A DNA stretch of 64,000 nucleotides from Escherichia coli (GCF_013122565.1 NZ_CP053258.1), one strand, 5' to 3'; counted from the first letter of the stretch, positions 9,516 through 62,729 are shown. Program-made: numbers and translations. The notes: generated by a model not told the origin, from the letters alone.

Positions 9516-10604
9516 TTACACCATTGGCACTAATGAAAGCGCGTTATCGGCAGACAGGGTAGGGTTGTTTAAGCTGCCGCTGGCGCGTGAAATTGCCGCG
9601 CAGGCCATCGCAAAACGGGCGCTGTCACGGAAATTGTTTCCCTCCAGAAAGCTATATACCAGGCCCGCCATAAAACCATCGTCAGCACCAAAACTGTCTA
9701 CTGTCGTATGCGCTGGTGCGGTCAGCAAAAATTGTTCTCCATCCTTTTCGCTGCAATAAACTGACTCATCGGGCAAATAAACAAACAGTTGCTGAACACC
9801 TTGCTGATGCAACGCATTCACTGCGGCATTACGGTCAACATCGCTGGTGATCGCCTGTCCCCATAAAATTTCCAGCTCCGGTAAAGTGGGTTTCAGGGTA
9901 TGAATATGCGCCAGCCAGTGTTTGATTTTGCCCGCTTTGAATTCTGAAACGGTATCGACAAACACCGGGATCTCATCAGCGAGGGTAAAGACCCATTCCA
10001 GCGCCTCGGCTGTCAGGTTGCAATCAGCCAGTACCACGCCCGCATGACGAAGTAAATCGCGCGACCCGTTCAGTAGTTGCGGTGTCAACTGTTCCAGCAG
10101 ATGGGTATCGTTAATCGCCAGCACGGTTTGATCGTCTCGATTGGCAATTGCCAGATACGTCGATGTGCTTTGACCATGCAAACGAACGCAGCCGGAGACA
10201 TTCACGCCGGCACGGCGCGTTTCTTCCAGGAGCATTTCGCCATAAAAGTCATCGCCAATCACTGAAAGCAAATGGACGTCGCGGCCTAACAGCGCCAGAT
10301 TGTGGGCGATATTGCGTCCAACGCCGCCCGCCGAGCAATGAATTGTACCGGGATGAGAAGCCGCTTGCGGGTAACGGATATCCGCCATCCCGCGAATATC
10401 CATATTGATTGTCCCCACCACTACGCAGTATTCCTGCTCGGTGAGAATGTAACCTTTGCCTTTAATCCGGCCTTTGCGCATTAAATCCATAATATGCGCC
10501 GCAACGCGCGAACGACTGATTTGCAGCATGTCCGCAATTTCGTTCTGCTGAATCAGCGGGTTACGCCGTAAAATTGCAAGGATCTCCTTTTCCCGGTTAT
10601 TCAT
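9516..10604 (-). CDS. yeiI: HTH-fused PfkB-family carbohydrate/nucleoside kinase (uncharacterised)
   Basis: 362-aa ORF: N-terminal winged-HTH-like segment (MNNREKEILAILRRNPLIQQNEIADMLQISRSRV) fused to a PfkB kinase domain paralogous to psuK; matches YeiI. Confidence 0.88.
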   Translation of the reverse strand: MNNREKEILAILRRNPLIQQNEIADMLQISRSRVAAHIMDLMRKGRIKGKGYILTEQEYCVVVGTINMDIRGMADIRYPQAASHPGTIHCSAGGVGRNIAHNLALLGRDVHLLSVIGDDFYGEMLLEETRRAGVNVSGCVRLHGQSTSTYLAIANRDDQTVLAINDTHLLEQLTPQLLNGSRDLLRHAGVVLADCNLTAEALEWVFTLADEIPVFVDTVSEFKAGKIKHWLAHIHTLKPTLPELEILWGQAITSDVDRNAAVNALHQQGVQQLFVYLPDESVYCSEKDGEQFLLTAPAHTTVDSFGADDGFMAGLVYSFLEGNNFRDSARFAMACAAISRASGSLNNPTLSADNALSLVPMV

Positions 10605-10606
10605 CT

Positions 10607-11464
10607 TCAGGCTACCGCTTTTTCAGTTTGTTGCGCTTTCAGCCAGGCGATCTCTTCTGCCCAGATATCCGGGTTGATGGTTTCAAGGATCAGCGGAATG
10701 CCGTCGAAACGGTCATCCTGCATGATCCAGCGGAACGCATCATGACCGATATTGCCTTCACCGAGGCTATGATGGCGGTCAACGCGGCTGCCAAAGGTGC
10801 TTTTCGCATCGTTAAGGTGCATCCCGCGCAGATACTTAAAGCCGACAATACGGGCAAAATCAGCGAACGTTTTCTCGCATTCGGCTGGAGTACGCAAATC
10901 ATACCCGGCAGCGAAAGCATGGCAGGTATCAATGCAGACGCCGACACGGGATTTATCTTCCACGCCGTCGATAATTGCCGCGAGATGTTCGAATTTAAAC
11001 CCTAAGTTACTACCCTGACCGGCGGTGTTTTCAATCACCGCGGTCACACCTTGAGTTTTATCCAGCGCAATGTTGATGGATTCGGCAATACGCGCAAGGC
11101 AATCCTCTTCTGAAATCTGCATCAGATGGCTGCCAGGGTGGAAGTTGAGCAAAGAAAGCTCCAGCTGTTCGCAACGCTGCATTTCATCTATAAAGGCATC
11201 GCGCGATTTTTCCAGAGCTTCAGTGACCGGATGTCCGAGGTTAATCAGATAGCTGTCGTGGGGAAGAATTTGCGCCGATGTGTAGTGATATTTTTCACAG
11301 GCGGCTTTGAATTCATCGATGGTTTGCGTCGTGAGCGGTGCGGCACGCCACTGACGTTGGTTTTTGGTGAACAAGGCAAACGCGGTTGCGTCGATTTCGG
11401 CGGCGCGAATTGCGGCATTTGCCAGACCGCCAGCAGCACTAACGTGCGCTCCAATGTATTTCAT
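10607..11464 (-). CDS. nfo: Endonuclease IV (AP endonuclease)
   Basis: 285-aa [24 protein letters not shown]...; matches Nfo; 2-nt gap to yeiI downstream on the same strand. Confidence 0.95.
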
Positions 11465-11537
11465 GCGAGGACTCCTGTTAAACCCGCTGGAGGAAAACGG
11501 TAATGATAGCGGGTTAACAGGAGCAAGATGTAGTGGT

Positions 11538-12587
11538 TTATGCGATGACGCTTTGAATCACATAGTTAATCGCACCACCACCAACAATCAGCCAGGCAAA
11601 CAGTACCAGTGCCATCAGCAGAGGTTTCGCCCCGGCTTTTTTCAGCGCGCTGACGTGAGTGGTCAGACCCAGCGCCGCCATCGCCATTGCCAGCAGGAAG
11701 GTATCCAGCGTTACCAGCATGTTCACCACGCTCTGCGGTAACAGGTGGAACGAGTTAAAGATGGCAACTACGATGAACAAGATGGCAAACCACGGAATAG
11801 TGATTTTGCTTTTCTCGCCGCTGTTCGCCCCAGACAGCTGTTTAACACGCGCCGCCAGCAGGATGAGGAACGGAGCCAGCATCATCACGCGCAGCATTTT
11901 GGAAATAACTGCTGCGTTTTCCGCATCCGGGCTGATGGCATGACCTGCCGCCACCACCTGCGCCACTTCGTGCACAGTAGAACCAATGTAGATACCGAAA
12001 GTTTCCGGACTAAACCATTGAGACATCAGCGGATATATCGCCGGGTAGAGGAAAATCGCGACGGTCCCGAAGATAACAACGGTTGCAACAGCCACGGTTA
12101 CTTTACTGGCTTCCGCTTTCACTACCGGCTCAGTCGCCAGTACCGCGGCAGCACCACAGATACTGCTACCGGCACCGATCAACCAGCTGGTGTGCTTATC
12201 CAGACCAAACACTTTCTGTCCCAGGAAGCAAGCCAGCAGGAAGGTACTGGACAGCGTCAACACGTCAATGATGATCCCACTGATACCGACATCGGCAATT
12301 TGCGAGAACGTCAGACGGAAGCCATAAAGAATGATACCCAGACGTAATAAATATTGCTTGGCAAACAGCACACCACCGTCACAGCTTTTCCAGATGTGCG
12401 GATAGATGGTGTTGCCTAAAACCATCCCCAACAAAATTGCGAGGGTGAGGGCACTAAACCCGGCACCCGCAACCGCGGGAATGGAACCACCCCACAGGGC
12501 GACCCCGGTGATAACTGCACTCAGGGCTAACCCCGGAATAAAATGCCACAGTGTACGATGTTGTTTCTGTAAGGTGATATTCGTCAT
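11538..12587 (-). CDS. yeiH: UPF0324 inner-membrane protein YeiH
   Basis: 349-aa polytopic membrane ORF matching YeiH; divergent from the LysR-type gene yeiE. Confidence 0.9.
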
Positions 12588-12640
12588 AACCCTCTCCTTT
12601 ATCCGGGCATAAGGTTACGACTAACTGGTTTAAAAATAAA

Positions 12641-12664
12641 ATTGATTATATATTTATAATCAAT
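12641..12664. promoter_or_regulatory. Perfect 24-bp palindrome in the yeiH/yeiE divergent promoter (putative LysR-type YeiE operator)
   Basis: ATTGATTATA-tatt-TATAATCAAT, 10-bp perfect arms; contains TATAAT hexamers on both strands; 22 nt upstream of the yeiE ATG. Confidence 0.45.
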
Positions 12665-12685
12665 CTTTATAAGTGGTAAGCGACT

Positions 12686-13567
12686 ATGCACATCACCCTC
12701 CGGCAGTTGGAAGTTTTTGCAGAAGTATTGAAAAGTGGATCAACCACCCAGGCGTCGGTGATGCTGGCGTTGTCGCAATCAGCAGTGAGCGCAGCCTTGA
12801 CCGACCTGGAAGGGCAGCTTGGCGTTCAACTGTTTGATCGCGTGGGGAAAAGACTGGTTGTTAATGAACACGGGCGGCTGCTCTATCCGCGTGCGTTGGC
12901 ACTGCTTGAACAGGCGGTTGAAATCGAACAACTGTTTCGTGAAGACAACGGCGCGATTCGTATCTATGCCAGTAGTACCATCGGTAACTACATTCTGCCT
13001 GCAGTCATTGCCCGTTATCGCCATGATTATCCGCAGTTGCCGATTGAACTTAGCGTTGGGAACAGCCAGGACGTGATGCAAGCGGTACTGGATTTCCGCG
13101 TTGATATTGGCTTTATTGAAGGACCGTGCCACAGCACTGAAATCATTTCTGAACCGTGGCTGGAAGACGAGCTGGTGGTTTTCGCCGCGCCGACTTCGCC
13201 GTTGGCCCGTGGTCCGGTCACCTTAGAACAGCTGGCCGCTGCGCCGTGGATCCTGCGTGAACGCGGTTCCGGCACGCGAGAGATTGTCGATTATCTGTTG
13301 CTGTCACATTTACCGAAGTTTGAGATGGCGATGGAATTAGGTAACTCCGAGGCAATCAAACATGCGGTGCGTCATGGGTTGGGAATTAGTTGCCTGTCGC
13401 GACGGGTGATTGAAGATCAATTGCAGGCAGGCACATTAAGTGAAGTTGCGGTCCCTCTGCCGCGCCTGATGCGTACGTTGTGGCGTATACATCATCGGCA
13501 AAAACACCTTTCCAACGCGCTACGGCGCTTCCTGGACTATTGCGATCCCGCGAATGTCCCGCGTTAA
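12686..13567 (+). CDS. yeiE: LysR-family transcriptional regulator YeiE
   Basis: 293-aa ORF with N-terminal LysR HTH ([42 protein letters not shown]); matches YeiE. Confidence 0.92.
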
Positions 13568-42414: not shown

Positions 42415-42595
42415 TAGGCAGGATAAGGCGTTTACGCCGCATCCGGCATTCGGAGCACAATGCCTGATGCGATGTTTGCGCATCTTATCAGGCCTACAAA
42501 CGTGACGCGTCCGTAGGCAGGATAAGGCGTTCACGCCGCATCCGGCATCCGGTGCACGCTGGCTGATAAGATGCTTGCGCATCTTATCAGGACTC
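42415..42595. repeat. BIME/REP cluster between convergent pbpG and dld
   Basis: Two copies of gcaggataaggcgtt(t/c)acgccgcatccggcat plus repeated gcgcatcttatcagg units. Confidence 0.75.
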
Positions 42596-46840: not shown

Positions 46841-46900
46841 AAGGGCGCGACGTTTGCGCCCTTTGTAGGCCGGATAAGGCGCTCGCGCCGCATCCGGCAG
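46841..46900 (+). terminator. bglX terminator hairpin followed by a REP unit
   Basis: Stem aagggcgc / gcgccctt with 7-nt loop, then taggccggataaggcgctcgcgccgcatccggcag REP. Confidence 0.6.
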
Positions 46901-47041: not shown

Positions 47042-47959
47042 ATGCCACTCTTAAAGCTCTGGGCAGGTTCACTGGTTATGTTGGCAGCCGTGAGCCTGCC
47101 GCTACAGGCGGCTTCCCCCGTTAAAGTCGGTTCAAAAATCGATACCGAAGGCGCGCTGCTCGGCAACATCATCTTGCAGGTACTCGAAAGCCACGGCGTA
47201 CCGACGGTGAATAAAGTGCAACTCGGAACGACTCCTGTGGTGCGCGGGGCGATTACTTCCGGTGAACTGGATATCTATCCGGAATATACCGGCAATGGCG
47301 CTTTCTTCTTTAAAGATGAAAACGATGCAGCGTGGAAAAATGCCGGGCAGGGCTACGAGAAAGTCAAAAAGCTCGATGCGGAGCACAACAAGTTAATCTG
47401 GCTGACGCCCGCACCTGCGAATAACACCTGGACCATCGCCGTGCGTCAGGATGTGGCAGAGAAAAACAAACTCACTTCGCTTGCTGACCTGAGTCGTTAT
47501 CTGAAAGAGGGCGGAACCTTCAAACTGGCAGCCTCGGCAGAGTTTATCGAACGCGCCGATGCCTTACCCGCGTTTGAAAAAGCCTACGACTTTAAACTCG
47601 ATCAGGATCAGTTACTGTCACTGGCCGGTGGCGACACGGCGGTAACGATTAAAGCCGCTGCCCAGCAAACTTCTGGCGTTAATGCCGCAATGGCTTACGG
47701 CACTGACGGTCCGGTCGCGGCGCTGGGGCTGCAAACCTTAAGCGATCCGCAAGGCGTGCAACCTATCTACGCGCCTGCACCAGTAGTGCGTGAATCGGTG
47801 TTGAAGGAATATCCGCAAATGGCACAGTGGCTACAGCCAGTCTTCGCCAGCCTCGATGCAAAAACATTGCAGCAACTGAATGCCAGCATTGCAGTGGAAG
47901 GACTGGATGCCAAAAAAGTGGCTGCCGACTACCTGAAACAAAAAGGGTGGACGAAGTAA
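47042..47959 (+). CDS. osmF: Glycine betaine ABC transporter periplasmic binding protein
   Basis: 305-aa ORF with signal peptide MPLLKLWAGSLVMLAAVSLPLQAA; matches OsmF/YehZ. Confidence 0.93.
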   Translation: MPLLKLWAGSLVMLAAVSLPLQAASPVKVGSKIDTEGALLGNIILQVLESHGVPTVNKVQLGTTPVVRGAITSGELDIYPEYTGNGAFFFKDENDAAWKNAGQGYEKVKKLDAEHNKLIWLTPAPANNTWTIAVRQDVAEKNKLTSLADLSRYLKEGGTFKLAASAEFIERADALPAFEKAYDFKLDQDQLLSLAGGDTAVTIKAAAQQTSGVNAAMAYGTDGPVAALGLQTLSDPQGVQPIYAPAPVVRESVLKEYPQMAQWLQPVFASLDAKTLQQLNASIAVEGLDAKKVAADYLKQKGWTK

Positions 47960-61928: not shown

Positions 61929-62037
61929 ATATTCATCCCTGAAATGTATTAATGAAATAAACGATATTTTACGCGCAATAAATGTTTGGTGCATTAGTTG
62001 TTTGAGCGAAAAATATCTGGAAAGCAGATCACAGTAA

Positions 62038-62120
62038 ATAAAAAAACCTGCTGGTGAGGCAGGTTCTTTTATTTACTACAGTGACGCTAACTTGCTGATT
62101 GTGCAACATTTCGTACCAAC
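62038..62120 (-). ncRNA. orzO: OrzO-like type I antitoxin sRNA (about 83 nt)
   Basis: Minus-strand promoter (-35 TTGCAA at 62150-55, 17-bp spacer, -10 TATAAT as reverse complement of 62127-32); 5' region complementary to the zorO 5' UTR; ends at hairpin aacctgc-tggtgag-gcaggtt (62045-62065) followed on the minus strand by TTTTTTT. Confidence 0.7.
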
Positions 62121-62496: not shown

Positions 62497-62645
62497 TAAA
62501 ATGATTACATCTTCCATTAATTCACCCGATAACTTTTTTCATATTTATAAATTCATCGATTTTATAATCAACGTACTATTTGGCCGGGATGTGAATAATC
62601 ATGGTGGGCTATTGGCGAAAAATATCTGGAAAGTAGATCGCAGAA

Positions 62646-62729
62646 AATAAAAGAACCTGCTGGTGAGGCAGGTTCTTTTATTTACTACTTTGATGTTAAG
62701 TTACTGATAGTGCAACATGGCATCTCAAC
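62646..62729 (-). ncRNA. orzP: OrzP-like type I antitoxin sRNA
   Basis: Same architecture as orzO: -35 TTGCAA 62759-64, -10 reverse complement of 62736-41, hairpin 62654-62674 plus T-run on the minus strand. Confidence 0.65.

Follow-up and report, generated by a model that had tools for sequence, protein, structure and literature searches.

A long hairpin between the genes yeiH and nfo was analysed in a 64,000-nucleotide stretch of Escherichia coli DNA (GCF_013122565.1 NZ_CP053258.1), hereafter called the window, which carries nupX, yeiI, nfo, yeiH, yeiE and lysP on this segment. The coding sequence of yeiH (11538..12587, minus strand; open reading frame (ORF) and RefSeq annotation) ends with the stop codon TAA at 11540-11538, and that of nfo, which codes for endonuclease IV (10607..11464, minus strand), begins with the ATG at 11464-11462, the minus strand being the sense strand for both genes. 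On that strand, the 73-nt gap between them reads ACCACTACATCTTG-CTCCTGTTAACCCGCT-ATCATTACCGTTTTCCTCC-AGCGGGTTTAACAGGAG-TCCTCGC-ATG. A base-by-base comparison showed that the element has the K-12 MG1655 sequence, with a sole mismatch within 11380-11640 at position 11634, inside yeiH, and published positions were converted with the relation MG1655 coordinate = 2250840 + (11464 - window position), which was likewise verified base by base. The inverted repeat had been noticed in a first-pass annotation made from the sequence alone, and it was confirmed at its position, with CTCCTGTTAAACCCGCT (11472-11488) and AGCGGGTTAACAGGAG (11508-11523) on the plus strand forming 16 pairs with one bulge and a 19-nt loop. 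In the RNAfold structure of the minus strand, 11524-11508 pairs with 11488-11471 and the helix comprises 17 pairs, namely those 16 and a closing G11524-U11471 wobble. The 5' arm, (G)CTCCTGTTAACCCGCT (11508..11524, minus strand), fills the spacer between the -35 and -10 elements of the nfo promoter, its last base being the first T of the -10 hexamer, and the loop (11489..11507, minus strand) holds most of that hexamer together with the nfo transcription start. The 3' arm, AGCGGGTTTAACAGGAG(T) (11471..11488, minus strand; bulged U at 11482), carries the Shine-Dalgarno (SD) sequence of nfo, as had been claimed; this AGGAG (11472..11476, minus strand), read directly from the sequence, is separated from the nfo ATG by 7 nt. 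The stem starts 14 nt past the yeiH TAA and has a G+C-rich core (CCCGC/GCGGG), and the mRNA of yeiH holds both arms.

The folding of the yeiH-nfo junction, proposed earlier as a check, gave one helix with a free energy of -25.8 kcal/mol (RNAfold), against a mean of -12.6 +/- 2.6 kcal/mol for dinucleotide shuffles (z = -5.0), none of the 200 shuffles being equally stable, and the helix was retained in the 221-nt context and in every longer one that was folded. Inverted repeats as such are not scarce here, the hairpin being one of 18 of at least 13 nt found in the 64-kb window with a gapless repeat finder, and the minimum free energy (MFE) of its 60 nt is outside the 25 lowest 60-nt MFEs of the window; since rarity alone is unremarkable, the argument for non-randomness is based on the shuffle z-score and on conservation. 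Of the 5,426 complete E. coli genomes, 5,425 contain the 60-nt hairpin once each and practically unchanged, with no annotated feature at its place, and an Rfam search of 10500-12800 (E <= 10) returned three matches at chance level and none at the hairpin. Membership in REP/BIME, ERIC or similar dispersed repeats was rejected, the element being single-copy per genome. A terminator for a plus-strand transcript was also rejected, as there is neither a convergent gene nor a U-tract, and so was a small plus-strand ORF in the loop (ATGATAGCGGGTTAA, 4 codons), for which supporting evidence is lacking.

The start of the nfo mRNA has been mapped in two published datasets. With single-molecule real-time (SMRT)-Cappable-seq, a capped nfo-yeiI 5' end was obtained at NC_000913.3:2250806 (+), with 145 reads starting at this position in M9 and 123 in rich medium, and full-length molecules from it reach 2252832 and span both nfo and yeiI (b2159|b2160; Yan et al. 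2018, PMC6131387, Supplementary Data 1-2). Similarly, differential RNA-seq (dRNA-seq) gave a transcription start site (TSS) at 2250807 (Thomason 2015, as tabulated in PMC10687069, Supplementary Data 4, 'Nearby TSS' column), with no other TSS tabulated in the 150 nt that precede the yeiH 3' end. In the window, these two starts are G11498 and T11497, respectively (11497..11498, minus strand), both inside the loop (11507-11489) and 10-11 nt past the last base of the 5' arm, and the published TSS datasets contain no other TSS in the 118 nt upstream of the mapped start. As the TSS is inside the loop, the own mRNA of nfo, which begins with GUUUUCCUCCAGCGGGUUUAACAGGAGUCCUCGCAUG, lacks the 5' arm and carries the 3' arm only, so that the helix cannot form on it. 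Within the same 5' end, the first ten bases (GUUUUCCUCC, 11489-11498, minus strand) include a CCUCC similar to an anti-SD sequence, which in the primary transcript could form a weak pairing with AGGAG; many genera have a pyrimidine-rich tract of the TTTCCCC type at this position. Regarding the other end of the transcript (9516-11498, minus strand), the ATG of yeiI lies 2 nt past the nfo stop codon, and the capped reads that run from the nfo TSS through yeiI to 2252832 imply that yeiI, which codes for a putative sugar kinase, is transcribed together with nfo from the sox-box promoter; nfo and yeiI were separate in RegulonDB, and the operon was listed as 'novel' (PMC6131387).

The promoter that belongs to this start has a -10 hexamer TATCAT (11503..11508, minus strand) with the TSS 5 nt (5-6) downstream; its first base is the last of the 5' arm and the rest is at the 5' edge of the loop. 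Upstream, a candidate sox/mar box, ATCGCATAAACCACTACATC (11527..11546, minus strand), lies in forward orientation with GCAT as A site and TACA as B site, overlapping both the yeiH stop codon and the nfo -35 region. The mar/sox box consensus AYnGCAYnnWnnRYYAAAY (as quoted in PMC3709825; see also PMC9638938) has 14 specified positions, 13 of which are matched by the candidate (ATCGCATAAACCACTACAT), the one mismatch falling in the B site (TACA for CAAA), and such a score has a background frequency of 6e-5 per position. The box is separated from the -10 hexamer by a fixed 18-bp gap, and its centre is at -38.5/-39.5 from the mapped TSS versus -41.5 for micF, an offset that is attributable to the short distance between -10 and TSS. 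Judged by these motifs, and apart from the offset of the centre, the architecture fits a class II promoter of the SoxS type. RNA polymerase with sigma70 (RNAP-sigma70) bound the yeiH>nfo spacer in genomic SELEX (PMC3946193), and nfo is a listed gene of the mar/sox/rob regulon (PMC3709825). A sequence or footprint of the nfo box was not found in the literature searched, the reach of which excluded the primary nfo promoter papers, and the yeiH-nfo locus has no entry among the rows listed in the supplements of PMC4782308, PMC7815308 and PMC12052159. A consensus promoter scan missed the actual nfo promoter, the -35 element of which is poor, as is expected of an activator-dependent promoter; the only promoter-like match of the scan, TTAACA-17-TACATT (11453-11481, minus strand), overlaps the 3' arm and the nfo start codon and is probably spurious, no TSS being mapped there.

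The primary 3' ends of the yeiH mRNA are found at 11466..11469 (minus strand), corresponding to MG1655 2250838 and, in a second dataset, 2250835, with a peak range of 2250833-2250843 (PMC10687069), and once converted to the window they are 2-5 nt past the last stem pair. The SMRT-Cappable-seq unit that starts at the yeiH TSS (2249699) holds yeiH only, and no yeiH|nfo unit is present in that listing (PMC6131387). The 3' end at the stem and the single-gene unit show that the helix is the 3'-terminal stem-loop of the yeiH mRNA, and yeiH and nfo are separate transcription units. The earlier view that the hairpin is not a simple terminator holds as far as the missing U-tract is concerned, the stem tail being UCCUCGCAUG, but the mapped 3' end brings the element closer to a terminator than had been thought. 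It shares with intrinsic terminators a G+C-rich stem-loop soon after the stop codon and, in the published data, an RNA 3' end just past the stem; it departs from them in its 19-nt loop (vs about 3-8 nt) and in the tail, and a terminator consensus scan found none on the minus strand. The 3' end could arise by weak intrinsic termination at the hairpin, or Rho-dependent termination further downstream could be followed by 3'-to-5' exonuclease trimming back to the stem. Within nfo, the stretch richest in C and poorest in G (C/G 1.4-2.1, roughly 11430-11250) falls in the first ~210 nt and begins ~40 nt past the stem, which is compatible with Rho loading on untranslated RNA and proves nothing by itself.

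The consequences for the ribosome-binding site were evaluated by calculating the cost of opening it in RNAs with different starts. For RNAs starting 60-240 nt upstream (ensemble calculation with the real E. coli flanks), opening the nfo SD was found to cost 12.4-13.3 kcal/mol, and for RNA starting at 11498 or 11497 the cost was 3.2-3.5 kcal/mol. Similarly, opening the footprint from -20 to +13 cost 18.5-25 kcal/mol in RNA reading through from yeiH versus 10.5 kcal/mol in the TSS RNA, and the probability of the SD being unpaired was about 0 in the former and mostly high in the latter. When the TSS was set at the position equivalent to that of E. coli in 30 genera, the upstream-extended RNA was costlier to open than the primary one in all of them, with a median difference of 8.0 kcal/mol. 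The same calculation for 38 long ORFs of the window gave a median difference of 0.6 kcal/mol (sd 2.4), with nfo ranking second for the difference and first for the absolute cost, so the masking at nfo is not an effect of RNA length. On any yeiH read-through RNA, the modelled energies indicate that the nfo SD should be essentially closed; how much this weighs physiologically depends on the amount of read-through, and the translational silence that such RNA would show is what we infer from the folds. The sequestration of the SD proposed earlier is therefore strong when both arms are present, but it concerns the read-through RNA of yeiH and not the nfo mRNA. The sole ORF of the window exceeding nfo in the difference starts at 47042 on the plus strand, where SD masking likewise depends on the upstream context (12.2 vs 3.1 kcal/mol) and strong local hairpins are found nearby (46841-46900 and 47056-47115).

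The conservation of the junction was examined in 80 nfo loci, one per species, across Enterobacterales, with yeiH as the upstream neighbour in most. The core Enterobacteriaceae are represented by 30 genera, including Escherichia, Citrobacter, Kluyvera, Enterobacter, Leclercia, Lelliottia, Pseudocitrobacter, Pluralibacter, Kosakonia, Shimwellia, Cedecea, Superficieibacter and Pseudescherichia, and most of them have a gap of 64-86 nt, with longer ones in Phytobacter (106 nt) and Kosakonia (132 nt, the maximum). Without exception, the 30 aligned genera share the motif CG.TAT..T, the conserved bases T, A, T and T of which correspond to positions -12, -11, -10 and -7 of the -10 hexamer. The sox/mar box scores 13/14 in 11 of the 30 genera and at least 10/14 in 22, and it scores well only at the 18-bp offset or, in three genera, one base off. 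Each of the 29 core-group sequences that were folded individually has a hairpin around the -10 hexamer, with energies of -19 to -36 kcal/mol. RNAalifold on the full MAFFT alignment returned no structure, the variable-length loops making the alignment gappy, and use was made instead of the per-sequence folds and of an alignment of 27 genera, trimmed of the loops and given the E. coli structure; this procedure is conservative for sequences with indels (Shimwellia, RIT691) and leans towards the E. coli structure. In this alignment, 82.8% of the pair cells hold standard pairs, versus 35-49% after a shift of the 3' partners by 1-3 columns, and changes on both sides occur in 7 of the 17 pairs versus 3.3 +/- 1.4 in shuffles (5 of 500 shuffles reach 7). 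Compensatory changes include a C-G to G-C exchange beside the -10 hexamer in Enterobacter ENT03 and, in Shimwellia, the replacement of GTTAAC/GTTTAAC by GTCAAAC/GTTTGAC, in which an inserted A also fills the bulge; further stem variants are TAGACCC/GGGTTTTAC in Enterobacter Bisph1 and GACCC/GGGTC in Kosakonia. The outer CTCCTG/CAGGAG stem has been lost from Citrobacter and Kluyvera, the helix of which continues inward through the -10 hexamer instead (AACCCGCTATACTC / GAGTATGGCGGGTT; inner extension TATACTC/GAGTATGG); the loop is of 9 nt, the tail is U-rich (UUUAAUUUAU) and AGGAG is absent, the loop and tail bringing this hairpin nearer to the form of an intrinsic terminator than the one of E. 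coli. The turnover of the stem in these two genera suggests that selection acts on the structure of the hairpin and not on its sequence.

Outside this group, the more distant genera in which yeiH is still the upstream neighbour but the gap is longer (100-400 nt), such as Serratia, Yersinia, Edwardsiella, Providencia and Budvicia, present a canonical terminator (stem and U-tract) after yeiH, located at -60 to -150 from the nfo ATG (one example is GGCCCGAATTTTCGGGCC with a run of U after it); nfo has its own promoter, with a -10 of the CATAAT type, downstream of that terminator. The Enterobacteriaceae with a compact gap lack a canonical yeiH terminator and have the hairpin in its stead; the simplest reading of these arrangements is that the yeiH end-hairpin and the nfo promoter became interleaved in the compact-gap genera. 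In Yersinia and Pectobacterium loci (L038:2099-2500, L041:2148-2500, L051:2246-2500), the gap of 255-402 nt is expanded by an ERIC-like repeat (core GAGCTTACTTGAGTAAGTGATTCGGGTGAG) that sits between the yeiH terminator and the nfo promoter. Three loci of Erwiniaceae (L035, L055 and L058; Pantoea, Mixta) have different hairpins about 45 nt upstream of the nfo ATG, the 5' arm of which begins inside or just after the -10 hexamer (e.g., TATGATGGGCG ... CGCCCA) and the 3' arm of which adjoins the SD; these junctions may be an independent version of a design with the start inside a hairpin.

The explanation that we consider probable, with some room for doubt, is that the helix at the yeiH 3' end is interleaved with an nfo promoter of the class II type and insulates nfo from yeiH transcription, by ending the yeiH RNA or protecting its terminus and by keeping the nfo SD closed on whatever reads through. 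In this arrangement, the 5' arm doubles as promoter spacer, the -10 hexamer and the start lie in the loop and the 3' arm carries the nfo SD. An RNA made from the yeiH promoter contains both arms, folds into the helix of -25.8 kcal/mol and ends just past it, and an RNA made from the nfo promoter starts at G11498 in the loop, contains the 3' arm only, forms no helix and presents an accessible ribosome-binding site. The net effect within the 73-bp gap would be insulation, in that yeiH transcription would neither enter nfo productively nor be translated there, and the synthesis of Nfo would then depend on the transcripts of the nfo promoter itself; a selective benefit of this independence would follow, and is likewise something that we infer. 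A more far-reaching form of the same idea, which is put forward tentatively and with more doubt than belief, is that of a conserved 'promoter-in-the-loop' gate, in which one helix would serve as the end of the yeiH mRNA and would also lock the translation of nfo in an isoform-selective way, read-through RNA being cleared by Rho on the C-rich early part of nfo. With a gate of this kind, endonuclease IV and the co-transcribed YeiI would be synthesised solely from RNAs that the sox-box promoter starts within the loop.

Several points weigh against the insulating role. If termination or processing at the hairpin is efficient, there would be little read-through RNA and the masking of the SD may be without consequence, and all the TSS and 3' end data come from unstressed cultures. 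The hairpin is not a canonical intrinsic terminator, given its large loop and its tail. The covariation support is moderate, since the arms vary little and since the same sequences gave both the trimmed alignment and the structure. Additionally, the folding energies of sense and antisense strands were found to be no different (p = 0.23), and the conservation of the 5' arm could come partly from constraints on the promoter spacer and that of the 3' arm partly from those on the SD.

Among the other explanations, the one that survives best takes the hairpin for a plain terminator or 3'-end stabiliser of yeiH, the overlap with the SD and the promoter being a packing accident of the 73-bp gap with essentially no read-through. 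It agrees with the yeiH 3' end at the stem base, with the single-gene unit of yeiH and with the ordinary terminator that distant genera have at the equivalent place, and the Citrobacter/Kluyvera form, in which the hairpin is followed by the U-rich tail and AGGAG is absent, also speaks for it. An accident of packing, however, does not account well for the fact that, in each of the 30 genera, it is specifically the upstream-extended RNA in which the region from -14 to -5 before the ATG is masked, nor for the extreme position of nfo among the 38 ORFs of the window for masking. Moreover, the outer stem CTCCTG/CAGGAG, which contains the SD, is kept in most aligned genera although it removes the U-tract and would so weaken intrinsic termination, and we regard this explanation as rather unlikely. 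A role at the DNA level, with the arms as operator half-sites or as a cruciform that brackets the -10 and the TSS and represses or tunes the nfo promoter, appears very improbable. The arms do flank the -10 and the TSS exactly, and the equal folding energies of the two strands are those expected of a plain DNA palindrome. The distance from -10 to ATG, however, is 35-56 nt in the 29 folded sequences (77 nt in Phytobacter L012) and loop lengths vary several-fold, such variable spacing of the arms being a poor fit to an operator of fixed geometry; G-U wobbles are tolerated (e.g., U-G in 7 sequences at one pair), pairing is repaired by indels in Shimwellia, Citrobacter swaps the pairing bases yet keeps the hairpin, and a 19-nt loop makes cruciform extrusion unfavourable.

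Hardly any credence is left for the proposal of the first-pass annotation, according to which the 5' leader of nfo holds a cis-acting hairpin for translational control or attenuation that would open in certain circumstances. The SD in the 3' arm and therefore inside the helix, the high stability of the helix and the absence of a U-tract after it had made this proposal attractive, but both TSS datasets start the nfo mRNA in the loop, downstream of the 5' arm, which is the very position that had been singled out beforehand as contrary to it, and the next 118 nt upstream hold no further TSS. The own transcript of nfo thus does not contain both arms, as an SD-sequestering leader would, and the -10 hexamer, invariant in the 30 genera, sits at the 5' edge of the loop. 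An attenuator would similarly be at odds with a TSS inside the loop and with the lack of a U-tract and of any antiterminator or anti-sequester pairing; the folds showed no competing pairing and Rfam no match at E <= 10, which gave no sign of an alternative structure or ligand that would open the helix. A chance inverted repeat without function, for which only the 18 gapless repeats of the window might be quoted, can practically be dismissed, with z = -5.0 and 0/200 shuffles as stable, a hairpin kept across 30 genera with compensatory changes and an RNA 3' end mapped at its base.

The TSS, the 3' end and the membership of nfo in the SoxS regulon were already in public data, and the gain lies in their interpretation. 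The interleaving of hairpin and promoter, and the conservation of that arrangement, seem not to have been reported before, but they follow principles that are already known. The junction illustrates how two unrelated genes on the same strand, 73 bp apart, can stay independent by means of one stem-loop and, if the interpretation is true, it explains how nfo, a stress-inducible DNA-repair gene, is uncoupled from the expression of its neighbour. It also shows that an SD-masking hairpin is not interpretable without a known transcription start and that it is legitimate for the annotations of a terminator and a promoter to overlap. Synthetic operons could make use of the design as a compact insulator. 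Should the helix act as a gate, similar designs may be common at compact same-strand junctions, and the Erwiniaceae junctions and the ORF start at 47042 hint at more of them.

Other palindromic elements were observed in the window. The divergent yeiE-yeiH intergenic region contains a near-perfect palindrome at 12638-12667 (AAAATTGATTATA / TATAATCAATCTT), which may be an operator of the LysR type (YeiE) or an overlapping divergent pair of -10 elements. Two near-identical hairpins with 19-nt arms (AGTAAATAAAAAAACCTGC / GCAGGTTCTTTTATTTACT) are found about 600 bp apart at 62033-62077 and 62642-62686 and look like a duplicated terminator-like element, and inverted copies resembling REP/BIME elements (CCTGATGCGATGTTTGCGCATCTTATCAGG), with 29-nt arms, occupy 42463-42591.

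Class II soxboxes such as that of micF have an A and a B site in forward orientation and overlap a poor -35 upstream of a good -10 (PMC9638938). The candidate nfo box resembles these SoxS/MarA/Rob sites in being forward, in overlapping the -35 position and in its 18-bp distance from the -10, and differs in the position of its centre (-38.5/-39.5, not -41.5) and in the B-site mismatch (TACA for CAAA); a promoter spacer that doubles as an RNA hairpin arm, as seen at nfo, is not part of the class II definition. Stem-loops without a U-tract occur at mRNA 3' ends that are formed by Rho-dependent termination and exonuclease trimming, and the yeiH end is alike in having a stable stem after the stop codon, an RNA end a few nt past the stem and no U-tract, whereas the overlap of that stem with the promoter and the SD of the next gene is no general feature of such ends.

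With regard to translation, there is a close likeness to pyrC and pyrD of E. coli and Salmonella, the longer transcripts of which fold an SD-masking hairpin and are untranslated, whereas those starting a few nt downstream lack the pairing partner and are translated (PMC6524683). In both cases, the start of the RNA relative to the 5' arm decides whether the SD-sequestering hairpin forms. At pyrC, however, there are two starts of one promoter, 2-3 nt apart, chosen by the CTP/GTP ratio, whereas the two RNAs at nfo come from different promoters, that of yeiH and that of nfo, with over 1 kb between them, the arrangement implies no sensing of nucleotides and most of the longer RNA stops at the hairpin.

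Protection of a downstream gene from outside transcription is known from IS200, in which a terminator hairpin at the left end, directly upstream of the element's own TSS, blocks impinging transcription and an additional stem sequesters the SD (PMC4513863). The terminator and the SD-masking stem of IS200 are two hairpins, the latter in its own mRNA, whereas at yeiH-nfo one helix appears to do both. Insertion sequences guard against random flanking promoters, whereas yeiH and nfo are a fixed chromosomal pair conserved across a family, with the -10 and the TSS in the loop. In the fold-back inhibition of IS10 and IS50, said to have been described by Davis, Simons and Kleckner in 1985, Krebs and Reznikoff in 1986 and Schulz and Reznikoff in 1991, transcripts from outside reportedly carry an upstream complement that pairs with the ribosome-binding site of the transposase, and the own transcript of the element is said to start downstream of that complement, a logic alike to that proposed for yeiH-nfo. 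If the helix does act as a gate, the yeiH-nfo junction would be a chromosomal, family-wide counterpart of this protection of insertion sequences by fold-back.

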